A stretch of 62,137 nucleotides of DNA from a virus (Duplodnaviria; Caudoviricetes): the IMG/VR virus record IMGVR_UViG_3300016472_000394, positions 1-62,137 of that record. One strand, written 5' to 3'. Position 1 is the stretch's first letter, and every line of letters starts with the position of its first letter. Positions 15,076 to 57,273 of the stretch are shown here, one piece after another. A program made the position numbers and the translations under genes. Under the pieces are notes generated by a model. The model did not search any database and had not been told where the DNA came from. It saw only the letters and a program-made list of their open reading frames with translations.

Positions 15076-16007
15076 TTTCTCCCAAACATTTTGTGCTCTA
15101 CCAACTTTAATAAATCAAGTGGAGGTGTATTATATATTTTAGTGTTTATTTTATCATACCCCAATTCAGATGCATCCTCACCATCTAATTTAACTAAATG
15201 TGATTGAATACCAAATCCCATAAGTTTTTCACATAGTTGAATTGAATTTTGGATTGCATCCTTATCAAGACACACATAAACTTTGGATACTTTTTTATCT
15301 AATATCTTTTTTTCCAACTTTTGCGGAATGGTTTTACCAAAAATTGGTATTGCATTCCTACGAATAGAAATAGCATCAAATACACCCTCACAAATTACAA
15401 TTGGTTCATCCCAATTTATAAATAAATCAAAACCAATAATATCCTTTGATACTTTTGGGTTTTTATGTTTATGCGGTGTATCGTAAAAAGCCCTGCTGAC
15501 AAAATAATTCAATATACCCTCTGAGTCATAAGATGGAATTATTATCCTATTGGAATATTCACCCCCCTCACAATAACCTATGTTGTATTTAACAATATCA
15601 CCCGGTCTTATACCCCGCCCCAAAAGGTAATTAATAGCATGATTATAAATTGGTGATTTTTTATTTTCCCATAATGGATGAAACTCTTTTGGCAATTCCA
15701 CCCTTTCTATAACATCAGTATATTCTCTTTGAGTTACAAATCTATCAACCTTACTTAAAATAGAGTTGTGTTCATCCCAAATTTCTTTTGATACACCCAG
15801 CTTCTTAAAAAGAGAACGAATTGTTTTTCCCTTCTCGTCGGAAATCCAACAGTGCCAACGATTTTCACCATTTTGGGTTTTAATATTTATTTCAAGCTTT
15901 GGTTTATAGTGGTCTGTAAATGGTGAGTAAAAAGCATAATTATCTCCAGTAGTTTTTTTACTCTTCCCCAATACCCGTTCTAAAAGCTCAAGCAATCTTT
16001 CTTCCAT
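15072..16007 (-). CDS. DNA primase (TOPRIM)
   Basis: Degenerate zinc-binding region, RIIIP, ICEGVFDA, CLDKDA, EDASELG. Confidence 0.85.
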   Translation of the reverse strand: MEERLLELLERVLGKSKKTTGDNYAFYSPFTDHYKPKLEINIKTQNGENRWHCWISDEKGKTIRSLFKKLGVSKEIWDEHNSILSKVDRFVTQREYTDVIERVELPKEFHPLWENKKSPIYNHAINYLLGRGIRPGDIVKYNIGYCEGGEYSNRIIIPSYDSEGILNYFVSRAFYDTPHKHKNPKVSKDIIGFDLFINWDEPIVICEGVFDAISIRRNAIPIFGKTIPQKLEKKILDKKVSKVYVCLDKDAIQNSIQLCEKLMGFGIQSHLVKLDGEDASELGYDKINTKIYNTPPLDLLKLVEHKMFGRK

Positions 16008-16608
16008 AACCCCTTAAATCATATGTATAAATATGTTTTGGTAAATTAGTAATTATTTTTATACCGGAATCACCAGCTTTATATCTCTTGTTTATTTCAA
16101 CACCATACGGCCTATCTAACATAGAAAGTGTTCTAATGTGAAATGATTTACCATCAACCTCCAAAGATTTTGATGGGGATGTTTCACCTAAATAATTAAA
16201 ATTAGAAGCACGATATATAACACCACTATGCCCTTGATTTTGGTCTGCATAACTTATAATATATTCCCAATCCGTATTTTTCTTTAACCACTTAATTGTT
16301 TTGGATATAAAATAGGACTCTGCGTTTTTGGGTGTATCATCAACCAAACATAATCTTCGTAACTCCAATACCTTATCAGGACGAGTAGGGTGATAAGTCT
16401 GCCCAGCAGTTGGGCCGGCAGGACGGGTGTAAATGCAGACACCAATTATTTCAGGCATTCCAAAATTTCCTTCACGCAATAAAATAAAAGCATGTTTTGT
16501 TTGTATATTGACATAATCCGAGTAGTGCCACCTTTTCAAGAAAGCACGGATGTTAGGATTAAATGTAGTATGCTCTACTACATATGTTTTTATTATACCC
16601 ATTCCCAC
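15988..16608 (-). CDS. Mom-like (GNAT-fold) DNA adenine modification protein
   Basis: RWHYS, ELRRLCL...PKNAESYFIS, ISYADQNQGHSGVIYRASNFNYLG motifs typical of Mom-family proteins. Confidence 0.75.
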   Translation of the reverse strand: MGMGIIKTYVVEHTTFNPNIRAFLKRWHYSDYVNIQTKHAFILLREGNFGMPEIIGVCIYTRPAGPTAGQTYHPTRPDKVLELRRLCLVDDTPKNAESYFISKTIKWLKKNTDWEYIISYADQNQGHSGVIYRASNFNYLGETSPSKSLEVDGKSFHIRTLSMLDRPYGVEINKRYKAGDSGIKIITNLPKHIYTYDLRGYGRKIA

Positions 16609-39500: not shown

Positions 39501-39516
39501 ACACAAATATACAAAA

Positions 39517-39942
39517 TTATTTTTTAAGTTCCAAACTTTTTTGATAGTAATAATTATATAATTCTTCTAAATCCATTGGTTCTTCATTCATCATCTCATC
39601 CCACATATCAACCCCAAATTTTTTGTGAAGTTCTGTGCGGAGAGAATTCAATATGCGAATTTCATCTAACTCACCCTCAAACTCAAGCTTTAAAGCACGA
39701 ACCCTATGCATTTTACCAGCATCAAGAGCACTTTGCCTTCTGGATGATTCATCACGCCCACCATACTTTTTATAAGCATTATCATATGCTTTTTTAGCAT
39801 TCTCTCTTGCTTTAATAGCATCTATAAAAAATTGTGATATATCAAAATCACCATTTTGTATCTTATCAAATAGGTGGGAGTTTTGAGAAAGAGGCCGTTT
39901 TTTCGGCCCCCGTCTCCACCACTTAAATTTATTATATCCCAT
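39517..39942 (-). CDS. Hypothetical protein
   Basis: Start MGYNKFKWW chosen just after the AAA gene stop. Confidence 0.55.
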   Translation of the reverse strand: MGYNKFKWWRRGPKKRPLSQNSHLFDKIQNGDFDISQFFIDAIKARENAKKAYDNAYKKYGGRDESSRRQSALDAGKMHRVRALKLEFEGELDEIRILNSLRTELHKKFGVDMWDEMMNEEPMDLEELYNYYYQKSLELKK

Positions 39943-44380: not shown

Positions 44381-44392
44381 AATTTTTTATTG

Positions 44393-44463
44393 AGCGGATA
44401 GATGGAATCGAACCACCTTCATAGGCTTGGAAAGCGAATGTAATACCAATATACGATACCCGC
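44393..44463 (-). tRNA. tRNA-Gly(TCC), anticodon stem with two mismatches
   Basis: GCGGGTA/TATCCGC-U73, T-loop TTCGATT, anticodon loop TT-TCC-AA, stem TTCGC/GCCTA. Confidence 0.75.
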
Positions 44464-44752: not shown

Positions 44753-44824
44753 TAGGCCCACTTGGACTCGAACCAAGAATAACAGATTAGAAATCTGTGG
44801 GTATATCCCTTTACCTATGGGCCC
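44753..44824 (-). tRNA. tRNA-Arg(TCT)
   Basis: Cloverleaf with anticodon loop TT-TCT-AA, T-loop TTCGAGT. Confidence 0.9.
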
Positions 44825-44831
44825 AATATTG

Positions 44832-44903
44832 AGCGAGGGGGTGTTGCCACCACACCATCTCCGAGCTGGTAGCCCGGCGAGTTTCTTCCAATTCTTCCCT
44901 CGC
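44832..44903 (-). ncRNA. Non-canonical tRNA-Gly(ACC)-like RNA
   Basis: Acceptor GCGAGGG/CCCTCGC + U73, anticodon arm CCGGG-CTACCAG-CTCGG, T-stem GGTGT/ACACC with abnormal loop GGTGGCA, A8, weak D-stem. Confidence 0.7.
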
Positions 44904-44943
44904 ATATTATGTAAATATACAAAATTATTTTTAATAATCCAAA

Positions 44944-45393
44944 TTATGAGCAGTGATAATCTGCTGCTTTTGTTGCTATTTGAGCATTTGGTTTTATATT
45001 TACTTTATATCCCAATGAACTTGCCCAACCACATGTAGATGAAACTAATCTATTGGAGGGCCAATACCCATCATCATTATAATCCATATCCAACTCAACT
45101 TTTACATTTATTTGCTGGGTAAACCATTCTGCTAATTCAATTGTTCGTGAACATTCCTCAAATAATCTTTTAAATATATCTTTTATTATTGGTATTTTTT
45201 CTTTAGTATAAATGTAATGAACTCCTCTTATACCAAACCTATAAGCAATAGCAGTTACATATGTGGTTTCAATCCCCACATTTTGGGAATCAGTTCCAAT
45301 ATATATTTTTGTAGATGGGTATTTTTTTAATACCTCTAATGTATGTTGAATAGGGTCTACATACCCATTATCAACTGAACGAAATTTTTTCAT
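44944..45393 (-). CDS. RNase H-like YkuK (DUF458) family protein
   Basis: IYIGTDSQ...RLFEE...DYN...IKPNA.IA..AAD. Confidence 0.8.
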   Translation of the reverse strand: MKKFRSVDNGYVDPIQHTLEVLKKYPSTKIYIGTDSQNVGIETTYVTAIAYRFGIRGVHYIYTKEKIPIIKDIFKRLFEECSRTIELAEWFTQQINVKVELDMDYNDDGYWPSNRLVSSTCGWASSLGYKVNIKPNAQIATKAADYHCS

Positions 45394-47206: not shown

Positions 47207-47242
47207 AGTATCCTCCATTTTTATAAATATACAAAATAAAGT

Positions 47243-47689
47243 TTAACTCTCCAAATAATAATTTATTTTAATATCCGCTTCATTAAACATTTGAATACTT
47301 CTTTGAGCACTCTCTACCCACTTTTGTTCTTTAGAACCACCACCATCCTTAATCCATATTTCGGTAATACCTGCATTTATAATTGCTCTTGCACAATCTG
47401 TGCATGGTATTCCACATGTCATATACATTTTAGAACCATTTGTAGATACACCAATTCTTGCTGCATTATAGATAGAATTTCTTTCAGCATGTTCAAACCA
47501 AAAATACTTTTCAGGTCTTTCTTGTCTTTCATCTACACCATCATCAATACCTCGCGGAAATGAATTATAACCCGTAGAAATTATTTCATTACCCTTTCCT
47601 ACAAGAACAACACCTATTTGAGTATATTTATCTTTTGATTTTAACTTAACTTGTTCTGCTATATTAAAAAAGTATTCATCCCAATTCAT
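47243..47689 (-). CDS. dCMP deaminase
   Basis: STGYNSFPRG, HAERNSI, PCTDC. Confidence 0.92.
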   Translation of the reverse strand: MNWDEYFFNIAEQVKLKSKDKYTQIGVVLVGKGNEIISTGYNSFPRGIDDGVDERQERPEKYFWFEHAERNSIYNAARIGVSTNGSKMYMTCGIPCTDCARAIINAGITEIWIKDGGGSKEQKWVESAQRSIQMFNEADIKINYYLES

Positions 47690-47967
47690 AAAATTGTTAA
47701 TTTATACTCTTTATTATTTTCAGTTTTAAAGTAAATGCAATTTTTAGAACCATTCGTGTTTATTTCGGTAATTTTTTTAGATTGAAATTTTGAGAATGAT
47801 CCCAAAAAATCAGACCATTCAAAATCTAAAACCAAAACATTTCCAATGGTAGGTTTACCATGAACTAATTCAGTAATTTTACCAAACATATCAACATTAC
47901 CCCATCTAGCAGAATATGCTTCTATATTGAGATTACCGGTTATTTCTTCTAATTTATAATTTTTCAC
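47686..47967 (-). CDS. Hypothetical protein
   Basis: 93-aa coupled ORF. Confidence 0.55.
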   Translation of the reverse strand: MKNYKLEEITGNLNIEAYSARWGNVDMFGKITELVHGKPTIGNVLVLDFEWSDFLGSFSKFQSKKITEINTNGSKNCIYFKTENNKEYKLTIL

Positions 47968-48652
47968 ATTTTTTTAAATTAAATTTTCCATCATTATATA
48001 ATATATATGAATTACTCTCAATCCAATCACCACAATTAATATACGAAATTTTTTTACTATTGTCAATTATTGGTGTATGAATATGTCCACAAATTACACC
48101 AACACAACTTCTTCTTTCAGCCTGATATTCTAATTGTTCTTCAAATCGGGTTATAAACTTAACTGCTTCTTTTACTTTTAATTTTAAATATGTACTTAAT
48201 GATTTTTTATATCCCATTTTTTTAAGTGTTCTATCAATCCAAATTGCTAATTCATATCCCCAACTACCTAAATGACCTAACCACTTTAATTGAACAACAC
48301 CATCGTATAAATCGCCATGAGTAATATAATAATCATTCCATATCATATCATTTTTAATTTCAATATTACCCAAACTCAATGGGGTGTAATTTCGTAAATA
48401 CTCATCATGATTACCGGTGATATAATGAACCATCGTTCCATTTTTAGAATATGAAAGTATTTTTCGTATAACATTAGTATGGGATTGTGGCCAATGAAAT
48501 CGTTTTTTAAGTAACCACCCATCTATAAAATCACCCACAATTATTAATTCCTTTGGTTCATATTCTTTTAATACCCCCAATAACTTTTCAGCATTACATC
48601 CCTTTGAACCCAAATGGATATCCGATATTAATAAAGCATCTACCTTTTTCAT
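47954..48652 (-). CDS. Calcineurin-like metallophosphoesterase (UDP-2,3-diacylglucosamine hydrolase-like)
   Basis: ISDIHLG, VGDFIDGW, TGNHD, THGD, CGHIH, NCGDWIES. Confidence 0.85.
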   Translation of the reverse strand: MKKVDALLISDIHLGSKGCNAEKLLGVLKEYEPKELIIVGDFIDGWLLKKRFHWPQSHTNVIRKILSYSKNGTMVHYITGNHDEYLRNYTPLSLGNIEIKNDMIWNDYYITHGDLYDGVVQLKWLGHLGSWGYELAIWIDRTLKKMGYKKSLSTYLKLKVKEAVKFITRFEEQLEYQAERRSCVGVICGHIHTPIIDNSKKISYINCGDWIESNSYILYNDGKFNLKKCEKL

Positions 48653-49002
48653 TCTACATTTTTTGTAACTAAAAATAAACCCTTATCCAATATAAACCCA
48701 TTATTCAAAAAGTGCTTTAAGCTTGATACATTACAATGGGCTATAAGCGGTTTTCCTAATTCTTTTACTTTCATATTTCGATATTCCCATAATAATTTAT
48801 AAATACCCTTTCCTCTATGCTCTTCAATTACAAAAGCATGTCCTAAATAAATATGATTGGGGTGTTCCACATATGAAACAACCCCAACCAATTTATCTTT
48901 GAAATAAGCACCTTGATATGTTGCGGATTTATCTAATAAATCAGGTTTTACTTCACCTAATTCTTTTTCAACCTCATCGTATTTTGTGGTTCTTATTTCC
49001 AT
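48649..49002 (-). CDS. GNAT N-acetyltransferase
   Basis: FVIEEHRGKGI motif A; NGF. Confidence 0.8.
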   Translation of the reverse strand: MEIRTTKYDEVEKELGEVKPDLLDKSATYQGAYFKDKLVGVVSYVEHPNHIYLGHAFVIEEHRGKGIYKLLWEYRNMKVKELGKPLIAHCNVSSLKHFLNNGFILDKGLFLVTKNVE

Positions 49003-49729: not shown

Positions 49730-49807
49730 TGGTTGCGGGGGAGGGAATCGAACCCTCGTAGTTGGGCTTATGAGACCCAGCTGGCACCATCTCCAGTCTA
49801 CCCCGCG
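49730..49807 (-). tRNA. tRNA-fMet(CAT), initiator-like
   Basis: C1:A72 mismatch, loop CT-CAT-AA, encoded CCA. Confidence 0.85.
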
Positions 49808-50296: not shown

Positions 50297-50370
50297 TAGC
50301 GAGAAGCATAATTGAACTGCCGACCTTAGGGTTATGAATCCTACGCTCTAACCATCTGAGATATCTCGCC
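50297..50370 (-). tRNA. tRNA-Met(CAT), elongator-type
   Basis: GGCGAGA/TCTCGCT-A, loop TT-CAT-AA. Confidence 0.82.
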
Positions 50371-51443: not shown

Positions 51444-51551
51444 TAGTCAGTACAGGATTCGAACCTGTGGTGAGTTTGTTTTTTCATGCTACTGCGGATT
51501 GTCTACTCACTTACCGCAATTTGTCAGCGAAAACCATTTCGCCACCTGACT
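51444..51551 (-). ncRNA. tRNA-like element 1 (anticodon arm replaced by a pseudoknot-capable insert)
   Basis: AGTCAGG-TG-GCGAAATGGTTTTCGC ... ACAGG-TTCGAAT-CCTGT-ACTGACT-A. Confidence 0.75.
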
Positions 51552-51978: not shown

Positions 51979-51993
51979 AACATATATTTTAAG

Positions 51994-52066
51994 TAGTCAG
52001 GACAGGATTCGAACCTATACAATAGAGCAACCGCTCATAGCGTTTAACCAATTTCGCCACCTGACT
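51994..52066 (-). ncRNA. tRNA-like element 3 (anticodon arm replaced by a tetraloop hairpin)
   Basis: AGTCAGG-TG-GCGAAATTGGTTAAACGC-TAT-GAGC-GGTT-GCTC-...-ATAGG-TTCGAAT-CCTGT-CCTGACT-A. Confidence 0.75.
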
Positions 52067-52160: not shown

Positions 52161-52195
52161 GTATAAATATACAAAAAGATTTTTAATTATCCAAA
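52161..52195 (-). promoter_or_regulatory. Promoter (TTTGG...TATATTTA) driving the ncRNA/tRNA-like array
   Basis: Same architecture also near 44683-44713, 44910-44943, 50079-50111, 57705-57735. Confidence 0.55.
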
Positions 52196-52312
52196 TAAAT
52201 TCATCATAATAATCGCAAAAAGAAATCCAAATAAAACAACCACAATAGAACCCCAAAAATCAATAGGTTCTTCTTTCATAAAATCACGCAATTCATTAAA
52301 CATAGTTTTCAT
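52187..52312 (-). CDS. Small TM protein (41 aa)
   Basis: Manual translation MKTMFNELRDFMKEEPIDFWGSIVVVLFGFLFAIIMMNLFG. Confidence 0.45.
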   Translation of the reverse strand: MKTMFNELRDFMKEEPIDFWGSIVVVLFGFLFAIIMMNLFG

Positions 52313-54542: not shown

Positions 54543-54606
54543 TTACGATGTAAAGATCGTAATACTTTATTTAATATCCAAACTCACAATATTAAATAAT
54601 TGTTAA
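54543..54606 (-). promoter_or_regulatory. 64-bp early promoter cassette
   Basis: Consensus match; overlaps upstream gene stop. Confidence 0.75.
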
Positions 54607-55397
54607 ATTTTAAAGTCAAAAAACTCATTTACCTTATTATCAAATTTTTGATAATTATGATTAAATACATTCATATTAAATTCCGGCTTATTTATCCTTT
54701 CATACCCACCAAGCCCTGTCCTTCGCTCAAATATTAGGTCTGCTTCTTTTGGGTTTTTTAAACCCGAATACTCATCATACTTTTTTAAGATTTTTTTAGA
54801 TTCTTTTGATAGTGGATACATATATCTAAACATCAAACCACGAATCCTATCTATCTTTTTATATTCGCAAAAAGAGTGTGTCAACCAAAATATTCGATCC
54901 ACCCCCGCCCACTGTGCATTTTCTTTACATAATTGTTTAGCACTGCGGGGATGTATTTTTTCACCTGTAACCCGATCCATATAAACATCGGTTTTAAAAC
55001 TACCTATATACTTAAAATTTGCAGCCTGATATACAATACCACATTTACCCATAATACCATCAGCAAGTGTATATATAAATTTAACATTCGTATTTTCCCT
55101 AACCCAACTCAACAATAATTTAATAGCTTGAGAACCAAAGTTCCCACCATTTTTATCAGACCGGAAACACATTTTACCTATTTCAAAATAATCGGTAGTA
55201 ATCATATTATCTTTATAAAAGATCTTCTGTATAGTTTGTAGTGGTTGCGTTCCCCACCCCAATGTAATAATACCAACCAATTCATCATTCTCATAATACC
55301 CTAAATACCATTTAGTTAATCTTGGCAGGATCTTACTATAATGATATTTATGTATGAATAAAATTGCAGTATTTTTATGTATCGGTTTTATTTCCAC
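54603..55397 (-). CDS. Second Mom-like (GNAT-fold) DNA modification protein
   Basis: KYHYS, LVGIITLG, FEIGKMC, YTLADG..GKCGIVYQAANFKYIG. Confidence 0.7.
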   Translation of the reverse strand: MEIKPIHKNTAILFIHKYHYSKILPRLTKWYLGYYENDELVGIITLGWGTQPLQTIQKIFYKDNMITTDYFEIGKMCFRSDKNGGNFGSQAIKLLLSWVRENTNVKFIYTLADGIMGKCGIVYQAANFKYIGSFKTDVYMDRVTGEKIHPRSAKQLCKENAQWAGVDRIFWLTHSFCEYKKIDRIRGLMFRYMYPLSKESKKILKKYDEYSGLKNPKEADLIFERRTGLGGYERINKPEFNMNVFNHNYQKFDNKVNEFFDFKI

Positions 55398-55520: not shown

Positions 55521-56090
55521 TTATTTGTTAAATAATTCTTTTAAATTTTCTCGTTCTATAATCAATTTAAGCCGCTGCGAATAAGTATCACCTGACTCGG
55601 AATAAGTTTCATCTAACGCATTAAAATAATCGGATTCAGTATTTATATCACCTAAATAACGGCATTGATAAAATGCGTAATCATAAACTGATTCCTGCCA
55701 ACTATTATAATAAGCATGATTTAGTTGAGTTCTTTGAGCTGTTTTAATTCTACTACCCGCCATCTTCATACCAAACAAATTATTGTTTTTTTTGAATACG
55801 ATTGAACTCCAATGACCTGTTTCTAAAATGGATTGAGCAAGAACAATATGTGGGTGTTTTATATTCAAGCTTTTTATCATAGTAATGAGAGCATCTTTAG
55901 AAAAAGGTTCTTCCTCCTTATGGATAATATATACACCTCTTTCTAAATATATACCATTAGATTTACCACCCCACCAATATCCACCCCAAAAAATAACTAT
56001 ACTGAATAAACATATTAAAAACGATAATATTATAATTTGTGGTGTATAATATTTGTACATCATTTTTTTTCTATCATACTTATAGAACAT
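55521..56090 (-). CDS. GH73 glucosaminidase-family peptidoglycan hydrolase with N-terminal TM anchor
   Basis: LAQSILETG...NNLFGMK...YNSWQESV...YSES..Y. Confidence 0.8.
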   Translation of the reverse strand: MFYKYDRKKMMYKYYTPQIIILSFLICLFSIVIFWGGYWWGGKSNGIYLERGVYIIHKEEEPFSKDALITMIKSLNIKHPHIVLAQSILETGHWSSIVFKKNNNLFGMKMAGSRIKTAQRTQLNHAYYNSWQESVYDYAFYQCRYLGDINTESDYFNALDETYSESGDTYSQRLKLIIERENLKELFNK

Positions 56091-56106
56091 ATATTCTTAT
56101 TTATTA

Positions 56107-57273
56107 TTACCAAAAATTATTCACTACTGCTTCAATTCTCCGCTCTGCTATTTTACAATATTCTTCTTCTCGTTCAATACCAATAAAATCGAACCCTTCT
56201 AATATCGCACCTTTTCCCGTACTACCACTACCCATAAATGGGTCTAAAACAATTCCTTTTGGTGGAGTTACAAGTCGGCACAAGTAACGCATTAAATCGG
56301 TGGGCTTAACGGTTGGGTGGTTGTTGCGAGCTGGAGCTTTCTCACTTCCATATTTTCCGCTTGCACTGTTGATGTCATCTGCATAATCGCCAATGCCTCC
56401 GCCGCCACCTGTCGTTTGTTTTATCTCCATCCCCTCGCACCCCTCATCCCTGTCGCGTTTGCTTGCCTTGGCGCAGTAGAAGAACCGCGCGGCTGAGCCA
56501 AGCAGGTCGGTCACCTCCTCGCTCCCATCGTGGATGAAGTTGGCAGGCCATCTTCCAGTTGGATTATAGTTCTTAGGTTCAATCATAGAATAATCCCCAT
56601 AGACATTATTTCCTGTCAGGGGCGGTGTTCCAAAATCAGCGTGTTGATTTTTTTGAGTGCTTTCTTTTCTATCTTCCTCTGATATAAAATCCACCCTACA
56701 CCCATCCACGTTATTCGCACCCCCGCCGTGTTGCAGGACGTTCTCCGCTACCGTGCCAATCAGCGGCTTCCGTGCCACCGTTATCGGTTCAAGTGCGGGT
56801 TTCAGTGCAGTCCCCCAGCCTTCCCATTGCTTCGCTTCGGAGGTGGCGGGGGTGGTGATAATCGCTTGATTTTCTTGTTGTGGACAGGCAATTTCGCTTT
56901 TGGATGTTCTCCAATTTTCATTAAAACCCACCACCTCCCTCTCCGCACCCGCCGCCTTGTCAATCGCCTTGCTCACATCCAACGACTTCGGAAACCCCGA
57001 CCCGTACACCCAAGCAATCATATCCCTAATCTCAAAGCCCGCGTCCTCAATCCGCACCGCCATCCTGTGTTGCGTCCCTGCAAAACAAAGCAGGTGACCG
57101 CCCGGTTTTAATACCCTTAAACATTCTTTCCAAATATCGACACCAGGTACATCATAATCCCATCGTTTACCCATAAAGGATAAACCATAAGGTGGGTCAG
57201 TAACAATACTATCTACGGAATTATCTTCTAATTCTTTAAGTACATCTAAGCAATCTCCATTGATTATCCTCAT
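56107..57273 (-). CDS. DNA N6-adenine/N4-cytosine methyltransferase (beta class)
   Basis: TDPPY near N-terminus; HPTVKP; LDPFMGSGSTG near C-terminus. Confidence 0.92.
   Translation of the reverse strand: MRIINGDCLDVLKELEDNSVDSIVTDPPYGLSFMGKRWDYDVPGVDIWKECLRVLKPGGHLLCFAGTQHRMAVRIEDAGFEIRDMIAWVYGSGFPKSLDVSKAIDKAAGAEREVVGFNENWRTSKSEIACPQQENQAIITTPATSEAKQWEGWGTALKPALEPITVARKPLIGTVAENVLQHGGGANNVDGCRVDFISEEDRKESTQKNQHADFGTPPLTGNNVYGDYSMIEPKNYNPTGRWPANFIHDGSEEVTDLLGSAARFFYCAKASKRDRDEGCEGMEIKQTTGGGGGIGDYADDINSASGKYGSEKAPARNNHPTVKPTDLMRYLCRLVTPPKGIVLDPFMGSGSTGKGAILEGFDFIGIEREEEYCKIAERRIEAVVNNFW

Follow-up and report, generated by a model that had tools for sequence, protein, structure and literature searches.

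The window analyzed here is a 62,137-nucleotide (nt) stretch of DNA from a tailed virus of the Caudoviricetes (IMG/VR record IMGVR_UViG_3300016472_000394, freshwater, about 32% complete). It encodes a 72-nt tRNAGly-like RNA (the window RNA) and two proteins of the Mom family. The RNA belongs to a covarying family whose members commonly overlap or adjoin Mom genes, and it is probably a dedicated glycyl carrier that is charged by the host glycyl-tRNA synthetase (GlyRS), used by Mom, and kept from translation. The features concerned are the following.

44832..44903, minus strand: non-canonical tRNAGly-like RNA gene, 72 nt, defined by sequence reading, folding, and family-model scores
44752..44824, minus strand: canonical tRNA-Arg(UCU), called by ARAGORN and Rfam (59 bits), 7 nt downstream of the window RNA
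44392..44463, minus strand: canonical tRNA-Gly(UCC), called by ARAGORN and Rfam (50.5 bits)
44906..44944, minus strand: promoter-like repeated intergenic motif, directly upstream of the window RNA gene
44944..45393, minus strand: RNaseH-like gene (Pfam match PF04308), upstream of the window RNA and used as synteny anchor
54603..55397, minus strand: Mom-B, a Mom-family GNAT protein of 264 amino acids (aa) and candidate user of the window RNA (PF25680, 173.4 bits; PHROG 1384)
15988..16608, minus strand: Mom-A, a second Mom-family protein of 206 aa, next to a primase gene (PF25680, 119.8 bits)

The cloverleaf described in the original prediction, which was made from the sequence alone, is present on the minus strand (44903..44832) in every listed feature. 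The acceptor stem has 7 base pairs (bp; GCGAGGG/CCCTCGC). The D-stem (GAAT/ACTC) has one A12.C23 mismatch and carries an 8-nt D-loop, and position 26 is G. The anticodon stem (CCGGG/CUCGG) has 5 bp, one of them G.U, and its loop, CUACCAG, holds the "anticodon" ACC. A 4-nt variable region (AGAU) is followed by the T-stem GGUGU/ACACC, which includes U51-A63, and by the T-loop GGUGGCA. Positions 8 and 9 are A, position 73 is U, and CCA is not encoded. The minimum free energy fold (-30.8 kcal/mol, z = -2.64) retains three of the four arms (acceptor, anticodon, and T), and 4 of 200 shuffled sequences fold equally well. ARAGORN called 20 tRNAs in the window and Rfam called 19, none of them the window RNA; RF00005, the Rfam tRNA model, had no match there at its gathering threshold or at E <= 10 (801 bases searched). 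The window RNA scores 102.3 bits with family model R1 and 96.9 bits with family model R2.

Model R1, built from the window and its close relatives, detected a diverged copy at 64.6 bits on contigs L121 and L123; its best matches outside the family were initiator-like tRNA-Met (35.3 and 28.7 bits) and tRNA-Gly(UCC) (30.1 bits). A first pattern scan led to L140, which has two copies, one ACC and one UCC. With a looser pattern and model R2, 16 of 18 further viral loci yielded 30 strong matches (64-95 bits). Many of these copies form tandem arrays of two or three with 77-nt spacing and 5-nt spacers, located in tRNA islands of AT-rich phages. The arrays (L156-L172, e.g., L168 6943-7091 and L157 4887-5176; L140 6278-6908) contain both UCC and ACC types, and A33 is seen in some copies.

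In a MAFFT alignment of four clades, 96.8% of positions are paired and 7 of 21 pairs change on both sides; none of 500 shuffles reached this, and slid controls were 45-52% paired. Pooled alignment A8 contains 59 matches, 53 of them distinct, with 91.6% of cells paired against 33-47% in slid controls and with changes on both sides in 17 of 25 pairs. Alignments A5-A8 were fitted to the model structure, which favors that structure. A four-arm cloverleaf with 7/4/5/5-bp stems is thus kept by covariation, with 91.6-99.1% of cells paired. The covariance-model check proposed with the original prediction therefore returned homologs with covarying stems, and its argument that intact stems speak against random decay is borne out by the compensatory changes with which these homologs keep the fold. 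The RNA family is real and under selection, and it is not a decaying tRNA.

ARAGORN called none of the family members examined, and no Rfam 15 family, tRNA included, matched at E <= 0.1 in five loci carrying other members. The literature searched (supplements and subscription journals lay outside its scope), the main text of PMC13219725, and Rfam 15 hold no description of a Mom-linked tRNA-like RNA. The family is apparently widespread and undescribed.

Base counts refer to the 53 distinct members of alignment A8. G1, G3, A8, G10, U13, A18, G19, A22, C35, C36, G55, C70, G71, C72, and U73 are invariant, and C2 is found in 52 members. Position 4 is a purine and position 69 a pyrimidine in all. 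The determinants of bacterial GlyRS, as given in PMC10464925, are G1-C72, C2-G71, C35, C36, and U73, along with a preferred purine 4 and pyrimidine 69; the window copy carries all these published determinants. In 16 of 56 entries an encoded CCA follows U73, against about 1 expected by chance.

Canonical tRNA features, namely U8-A14, G18-Psi55, T54-A58, U33, and an open 7-nt anticodon loop, are not shared by the family. The 8-14 pair is swapped, with A8 in 53 of 53 and U or C at position 14, and G54 and G58 are each found in 50 members. In the elbow, A18 and G55 replace G18 and Psi55 in 53 of 53, and the G19-C56 pair is kept in 53 of 53; C56 itself is found in 52 members, with the single U in the window copy. 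The elbow is rebuilt, not lost. U33 is retained in 29 members. Positions 32 and 38 form a standard, covarying pair in 50, by which the anticodon loop is closed to five bases. Because the family keeps the GlyRS determinants and not the decoding features, what is conserved is what the synthetase reads, not what the ribosome needs. The ACC triplet, which the original prediction had made a defining feature, does not hold across the family: position 34 is C in 30 members, U in 15, and A in 8. Its statement that Gly-ACC is essentially absent from bacterial tRNA sets agrees with PMC8007984, in which tRNAGly-ACC is among eight universally missing tRNA genes.

The family is linked to Mom by position. 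L121 and L123 have the element on the same strand as a Mom-B homolog and 147 nt upstream of it; this homolog is 66% identical to the product of window 54603-55397, and ARAGORN called no tRNA on either contig (29 and 35 kb). L165, a GC-rich contig, has the element within the 3' end of a Mom open reading frame (ORF; L165 67-819). Of 20 loci with homologs of the L165 Mom, 19 carry the element; the sequence of the remaining one ends short of the site. Elements of this Mom clade are 94.8% paired, with 8 of 21 pairs changing on both sides.

Bacterial genomes and viral contigs were also scanned with an RNA-only pattern (D-loop, C35-C36, T-arm, and acceptor 3' strand). In bacterial genomes it matched 27 stretches, of which 21 are from Planctomycetota and 26 were confirmed by R2. 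A Mom match lies on or beside the element in all 27 loci, two of the matches being short (39 and 68 aa). Ninety stretches matched in viral contigs, and 80 of these loci were examined: 59 have Mom on the same strand at a distance of at most 300 nt, three of them as partial matches (64-158 aa). At a GC content of 0.45 or more, Mom is within 300 nt in 54 of 55 loci, and the single miss lies at a contig end. Of the 25 loci below 0.45, 5 are Mom-adjacent, all confirmed by PF25680, another 2 have Mom 2-5 kb away, and the remaining 18 lack Mom within the locus; tandem arrays make up 12 of these 25. A complete phage of 34 kb with terminal repeats, G036, carries exactly one family member, of ACC type and abutting Mom, and ARAGORN called no tRNA in it. 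Co-occurrence with Mom, suggested with the original prediction as a check, is thus strongly positive in the bacterial genomes, in the viral contigs, and in the L165-type Mom clade.

Both ORFs predicted to be Mom-like are Pfam Mom proteins (cut-off 27.1 bits), and both match the structure of phage Mu Mom (8bv8; E = 1.3e-11 and 5.4e-14). In a numbering mapped from the alignment (8bv8 chain position + 9), Mom-B keeps H58, Y59, S124, D149, and Y159; its R111 is replaced by K and its R151 by I. In Mom-A, R111, S124, D149, and Y159 are retained and R151 is replaced by N, with H58 and Y59 outside the aligned stretch. As the original prediction stated, Mu Mom transfers glycine from Gly-tRNAGly to the N6 of adenine in double-stranded DNA (Silva et al. 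2026, PMC13219725). All three E. coli tRNAGly isoacceptors serve and Gly-tRNAAla does not, and the authors consider that Mom probably recognizes the acceptor end of the tRNA (PMC13219725).

In the favored reading, the window RNA would be cut out of a tRNA-cluster transcript, receive CCA at its 3' end, and be charged by the host GlyRS through G1-C72, C2-G71, U73, C35, and C36. The charged RNA would then give its glycine in trans to one or more phage Mom-family GNAT enzymes. Mom would place the glycine on adenine N6 of double-stranded DNA, and rearrangement to N6-carbamoylmethyl-adenine would protect the phage DNA from restriction. The ribosome would be avoided through the altered elbow (A18 and G55; A8 with pyrimidine 14), the Watson-Crick pair 32-38, and the loss of U33 conservation. 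With the RNA kept out of translation, DNA modification would therefore not compete with late protein synthesis. The fold, its covariation, the pattern of conserved bases, and the genomic linkage are direct observations, and the use of Gly-tRNAGly by Mom is published; that the RNA is expressed and processed, glycylated, kept from EF-Tu and the ribosome, and used by Mom is inferred. The dedicated glycyl donor proposed in the original prediction gains support from the lie of the RNA over or beside Mom in the genome and viral loci counted above.

Several observations weigh against this reading. In the window, 9.7 kb separate the RNA from Mom-B and 28 kb separate it from Mom-A. Host isoacceptors suffice for Mu Mom, so Mom in general can do without the RNA, and a search of 3.2 kb at the right end of phage Mu turned up no family member. 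None was found in three complete cultured phages that have Mom-B-like genes, Edwardsiella ET-ABTNL-9, Psychrobacter Y8A, and Methylophilales Melnitz, or in G011 (76% complete); a 22.9-bit R2 match in Melnitz (L146 1997-2067) falls within the score range of ordinary tRNAs. In the other direction, Mom was not found in 11 of 13 records searched (12 of them AT-rich element-bearing fragments) or in G021, besides the 18 of 25 AT-rich viral loci without it, and the Mom-A type is present in relatives without the RNA (G003-G005). R151 is changed in both window Mom proteins and R111 is K in Mom-B; both changes abolish or strongly reduce the activity of Mu Mom. U56 and the A12.C23 mismatch make the window copy slightly degraded in comparison with the family. 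Its sole RNA-library support is a 343-nt contig (depth 4.5) spanning 44780-45122, from the 3' end of the RNaseH-like gene through the window RNA into part of tRNA-Arg(UCU), and this could be DNA carry-over or an unprocessed transcript. Finally, the RNA-only scanning patterns were derived partly from Mom-fused members, which biases the sample towards such members.

Three RNA-library runs, available as contigs only, cover parts of the window; such contigs show neither ends, strand, nor level, and window stretches without cover prove nothing. The RNA-only patterns sampled T-loop types other than that of the window. In G037, model R2 with default filters had no match in L304/L305, though the pattern matched L252 of the same contig. 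No Mom was found in five more distant relatives, whose records are fragmentary. Records in which Mom was not found do not show its absence, because they are 5-74% complete; those of the window's own group are all fragments, of 5-58% completeness. The tie between the RNA and Mom is not obligatory, and the Mom association is weak within the window's own group of large AT-rich phages.

The main rival explanation is that the element is mainly a cis-acting structure of the mom transcript, such as a 3' stabilizer, a site of processing, or a regulatory switch (RNase P might, for instance, truncate mom mRNA before its stop), and not an amino-acid carrier; free-standing copies would then be derived or serve another role. 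The layout of the fused loci suits this idea. In all 16 of the loci checked, the Mom ORF passes across the element in one reading frame and ends 98-158 nt past the element's first base. Where it crosses the element, it encodes a shared peptide of the type ...AEEGSRES...GSGRFRHSA, and the tail beyond the element is unconserved and of variable length (both in L176-L195 and L197-L223). The Mom stop codon of L198 is inside the element, in its anticodon stem. Overlap or abutment extends to the 54 of 55 GC-rich viral loci and all 27 genome loci, and mom of phage Mu is tightly regulated. A cis role does not account for the free-standing copies far from any Mom, often in tandem arrays of two or three in tRNA islands, or for elements upstream of Mom (L121 and L241), in L121 with a terminator-like hairpin between the two. 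The invariant bases are exactly the GlyRS determinants, and the encoded CCA in 16 of 56 entries likewise points to a carrier. A mainly cis-acting element is therefore judged unlikely, as is the derived status of free-standing copies that goes with it, and a cis role is compatible with the carrier role, not exclusive of it.

A more tentative proposal, possible and short of probable, is that mom and the RNA form a two-part hypermodification module, in which 5' excision of the overlapping carrier removes the mom stop and from which AT-rich phages moved the carrier to tRNA islands. If so, the carrier gene would overlap the last 20-50 or so mom codons in most prophage versions. Since excision at the carrier's 5' end would remove the mom stop codon, each mRNA would yield either enzyme or carrier; this would limit a toxic enzyme and couple the two parts in a fixed way. 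Large AT-rich phages, including that of the window, would have multiplied the carrier into arrays with ACC and UCC variants.

The element could also be an unusual translation-competent tRNA-Gly that supplements GGN decoding in an AT-rich phage, for example with A34 reading GGU or deaminated to inosine, and this is improbable. Such a role would fit a gene in a tRNA island with a promoter-like motif, a full cloverleaf with the glycine anticodons ACC, UCC, or CCC, and an elbow in which G19-C56 is universal. The window also lacks the tRNA-Gly(GCC) that its relatives carry. Decoding is, however, hard to square with U33 in only 29 of 53 members, the 32-38 pair in 50, and the universal replacement of G18 and Psi55 by A18 and G55. 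The tRNA models fail to recognize the element, which is the sole tRNA-like gene in small phages and there abuts Mom. Canonical tRNA genes co-occur with it: tRNA-Gly(UCC) in the window and tRNA-Gly(GCC) in L140. Replacement of tRNA-Gly(GCC) by the element was ruled out, because L140 carries both. Editing of A34 to inosine by a phage enzyme was dropped, because 47243-47689 encodes a deaminase of the dCMP-deaminase/ComEB type, not TadA.

Phage tRNA islands usually house countermeasures against tRNA-targeting defenses. The element might accordingly be a decoy or substitute against host defenses that act on tRNAGly, such as Gly-tRNAGly-acetylating GNAT toxins or anticodon nucleases, or be tied to GOLLD-type RNA cages; either is very unlikely. 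TacT-type toxins, as mentioned in PMC13219725, do target Gly-tRNAGly. GOLLD RNAs are described near tRNA islands, sometimes carrying tRNAs (bioRxiv 2024.12.08.627333), and in L121 and L123 a GOLLD RNA (RF02032, 174.3 bits, above gathering) ends 8 nt before the element. Neither idea explains the near-constant physical fusion with Mom. The element adjoins GOLLD but lies outside its model, the adjacency is seen in one lineage only, and Rfam detected no GOLLD in the window or in the Mom-fused loci tested.

The GOLLD RNA itself was located at L150 5451-5910 (minus strand), a stretch equal to L121 1317-1776 (plus) and L151 2300-2759 (plus), and it embeds a tRNA-like stretch (RF00005, 40 bits). The order after it in L121 is element, terminator-like hairpin, Mom-B gene, and dCMP deaminase gene. 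The phage contig with GOLLD, element, and Mom-B also carries a transfer-messenger RNA (RF00023, 60.3 bits) at L151 10963-11316 (plus).

With the RNaseH-like gene as anchor, 74 related viral loci were collected, and only those of the closest clade, L006-L008, have the element after this gene. A metagenome scan added L095-L098, and several metagenome and viral records contain near-identical copies; an exact anticodon-arm scan gave three true and three chance matches. Among cultured phages, megablast found no close relative of the window RNA, and distant blastn matched only the neighboring canonical tRNA-Gly. The RNAs of the window and L006 differ at 9 of 72 positions, none within the central 39 nt. 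Four of the nine make up two compensatory acceptor pairs, and one is a change from C2 to U2 opposite G71. Flanking DNA is 82-86% identical, and the two copies of the canonical tRNA-Gly(UCC) show a single difference in 72 positions. That the window copy is a functionless, decaying tRNA pseudogene is scarcely credible: it escapes tRNA finders, has a mismatch and a unique U56, and diverges from L006 at the background level, unlike the neighboring tRNA-Gly, but the compensatory acceptor changes, the 39-nt core invariant between clades, the near-identical copies in several records, and the strong family covariation all contradict it. The decoding, decoy, and pseudogene readings fit the data poorly.

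At the element's site, L009 (2700-2772) and L010 (3414-3486) have an initiator-like tRNA-Met, next to an anchor gene that is 89% identical in protein. Features of this tRNA-Met are a C1.U72 mismatch, an anticodon stem with GGG/CCC, and A11-U24; it scores 28.7 bits with the element model. By these sequence features the element and the initiator-like tRNA-Met of the syntenic site may share a common origin. A 123-nt stretch at L079 11378-11500 (minus) aligns over its whole length with the tRNA model (38.3 bits) and may be a tRNA with an insertion or intron.

The tRNA-Arg(UCU) gene and the window RNA are probably in one transcription unit. Upstream of the window RNA, a sigma-70-like match (TTAAAA-17-CATAAT) lies at 44934-44906; this AT-rich stretch has seven such matches against 3.2 +/- 1.7 expected, which is not clearly above chance. 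An AT-rich motif of about 33 nt with the core TTTGTATATTTA is found at 44912-44944, 52164-52196, 39505-39535, and 47224-47259, always on the minus strand and preceding gene or tRNA blocks. The 12-mer core TTTGTATATTTA alone has eight matches against 4.4 expected, which is not above chance. A GTATATTT(A/G) core is also found upstream of the element in two other phage lineages (L006 and L140). Of the promoter-like motif in the original prediction, the recurrence holds, with the 33-nt version at three other window sites and the core kept in L006 and L140, but the sigma-70 match does not stand clearly above chance. The recurring motif is likely a phage promoter.

Other tRNA-like genes of the window, all on the minus strand, include an ARAGORN tRNA-His(atg) at 51993-52066 (Rfam, 41.8 bits) with an oddly placed anticodon; its anticodon arm is a GAGC/GCUC hairpin with a 4-nt loop, and the motif copy at 52164-52196 lies upstream. 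A tRNA-Met(CAT) at 50297-50370 was called by Rfam only (44.9 bits), a 108-nt stretch at 51444-51551 is barely at the tRNA threshold (29.6 bits), and an initiator-type tRNA at 49730-49807 has a C1.A72 mismatch and encodes CCA. In the tRNA region, 47243-49002 (minus) encodes a dCMP deaminase, a metallophosphoesterase, and a small GNAT acetyltransferase. Neighbors of Mom-B (55521-57273, minus) are an endolysin-like glucosaminidase and an N6/N4 DNA methylase.

The staphylococcal tRNAGly that serve Fem enzymes are, to our knowledge, the only well-studied dedicated carrier tRNAs so far. These NP1, NP2, and NEW tRNAGly feed FemX/A/B, and, like the phage RNA, are glycine-specific and present beside normal isoacceptors (PMC4574755). 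As stated in the original prediction, the staphylococcal non-proteinogenic tRNAGly bind EF-Tu weakly; they lack G18/G19 and U55/C56 (PMC4574755). Both kinds thus deviate from the elbow consensus, with U18/C18-U19 in Staphylococcus (PMC4574755) and A18 and G55 with G19-C56 kept in the phage RNA. Both are thought to escape EF-Tu and donate glycine off the ribosome, as PMC4574755 describes for the staphylococcal RNAs and as is proposed here for the phage RNA. The proposed logic of a carrier plus a charged-tRNA transferase is the same, and FemX is treated as GNAT-type in PMC13219725. In contrast to the cell-encoded staphylococcal tRNAs, whose partners modify peptidoglycan, the element is encoded by phages and prophages and its partner would modify DNA. 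The 32-38 pair and a position 33 free to vary from U are features of the phage RNA, and its gene is often fused to the enzyme ORF. The carrier logic therefore has a precedent in the staphylococcal Fem system; what is new is the host (phages), the target (DNA), and an RNA gene that overlaps the enzyme ORF.

Compared with Mu Mom, the enzyme family (PF25680), the proposed chemistry, and the class of co-substrate are the same, but Mu uses host tRNAs (PMC13219725), whereas here the element would supply its own carrier RNA. Ordinary phage tRNAs in islands resemble the element in location, size, cloverleaf, and clustering with tRNA genes; the element differs in failing tRNA models, in not conserving decoding features, and in its link to one enzyme family.

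Plant RNA viruses have tRNA-like structures, which are aminoacylatable tRNA mimics at the 3' end of coding RNA with synthetase identity elements. Both they and the element are tRNA mimics in this position with such identity elements. The element differs in belonging to DNA phages and prophages, in its glycine identity, in its complete four-arm cloverleaf, in occurring also as free-standing genes, and in its proposed donation to an enzyme.

Absent from Rfam 15 and missed by ARAGORN, the RNA flags Mom-type hypermodification in phages and prophages, many of them of Planctomycetota, and the family could explain some orphan tRNA-like genes of phage tRNA islands. It is a natural probe for what Mom recognizes on tRNA, a point left open in the main text of PMC13219725. 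A protein ORF that enters the gene of its own RNA co-substrate raises questions on RNase P processing and mom regulation. If the favored reading is correct, a "forbidden" tRNAGly-ACC would exist in nature in a non-decoding role, and the family would be the second case of a dedicated carrier tRNA, the first to be virus-encoded, and the first tied to DNA modification.

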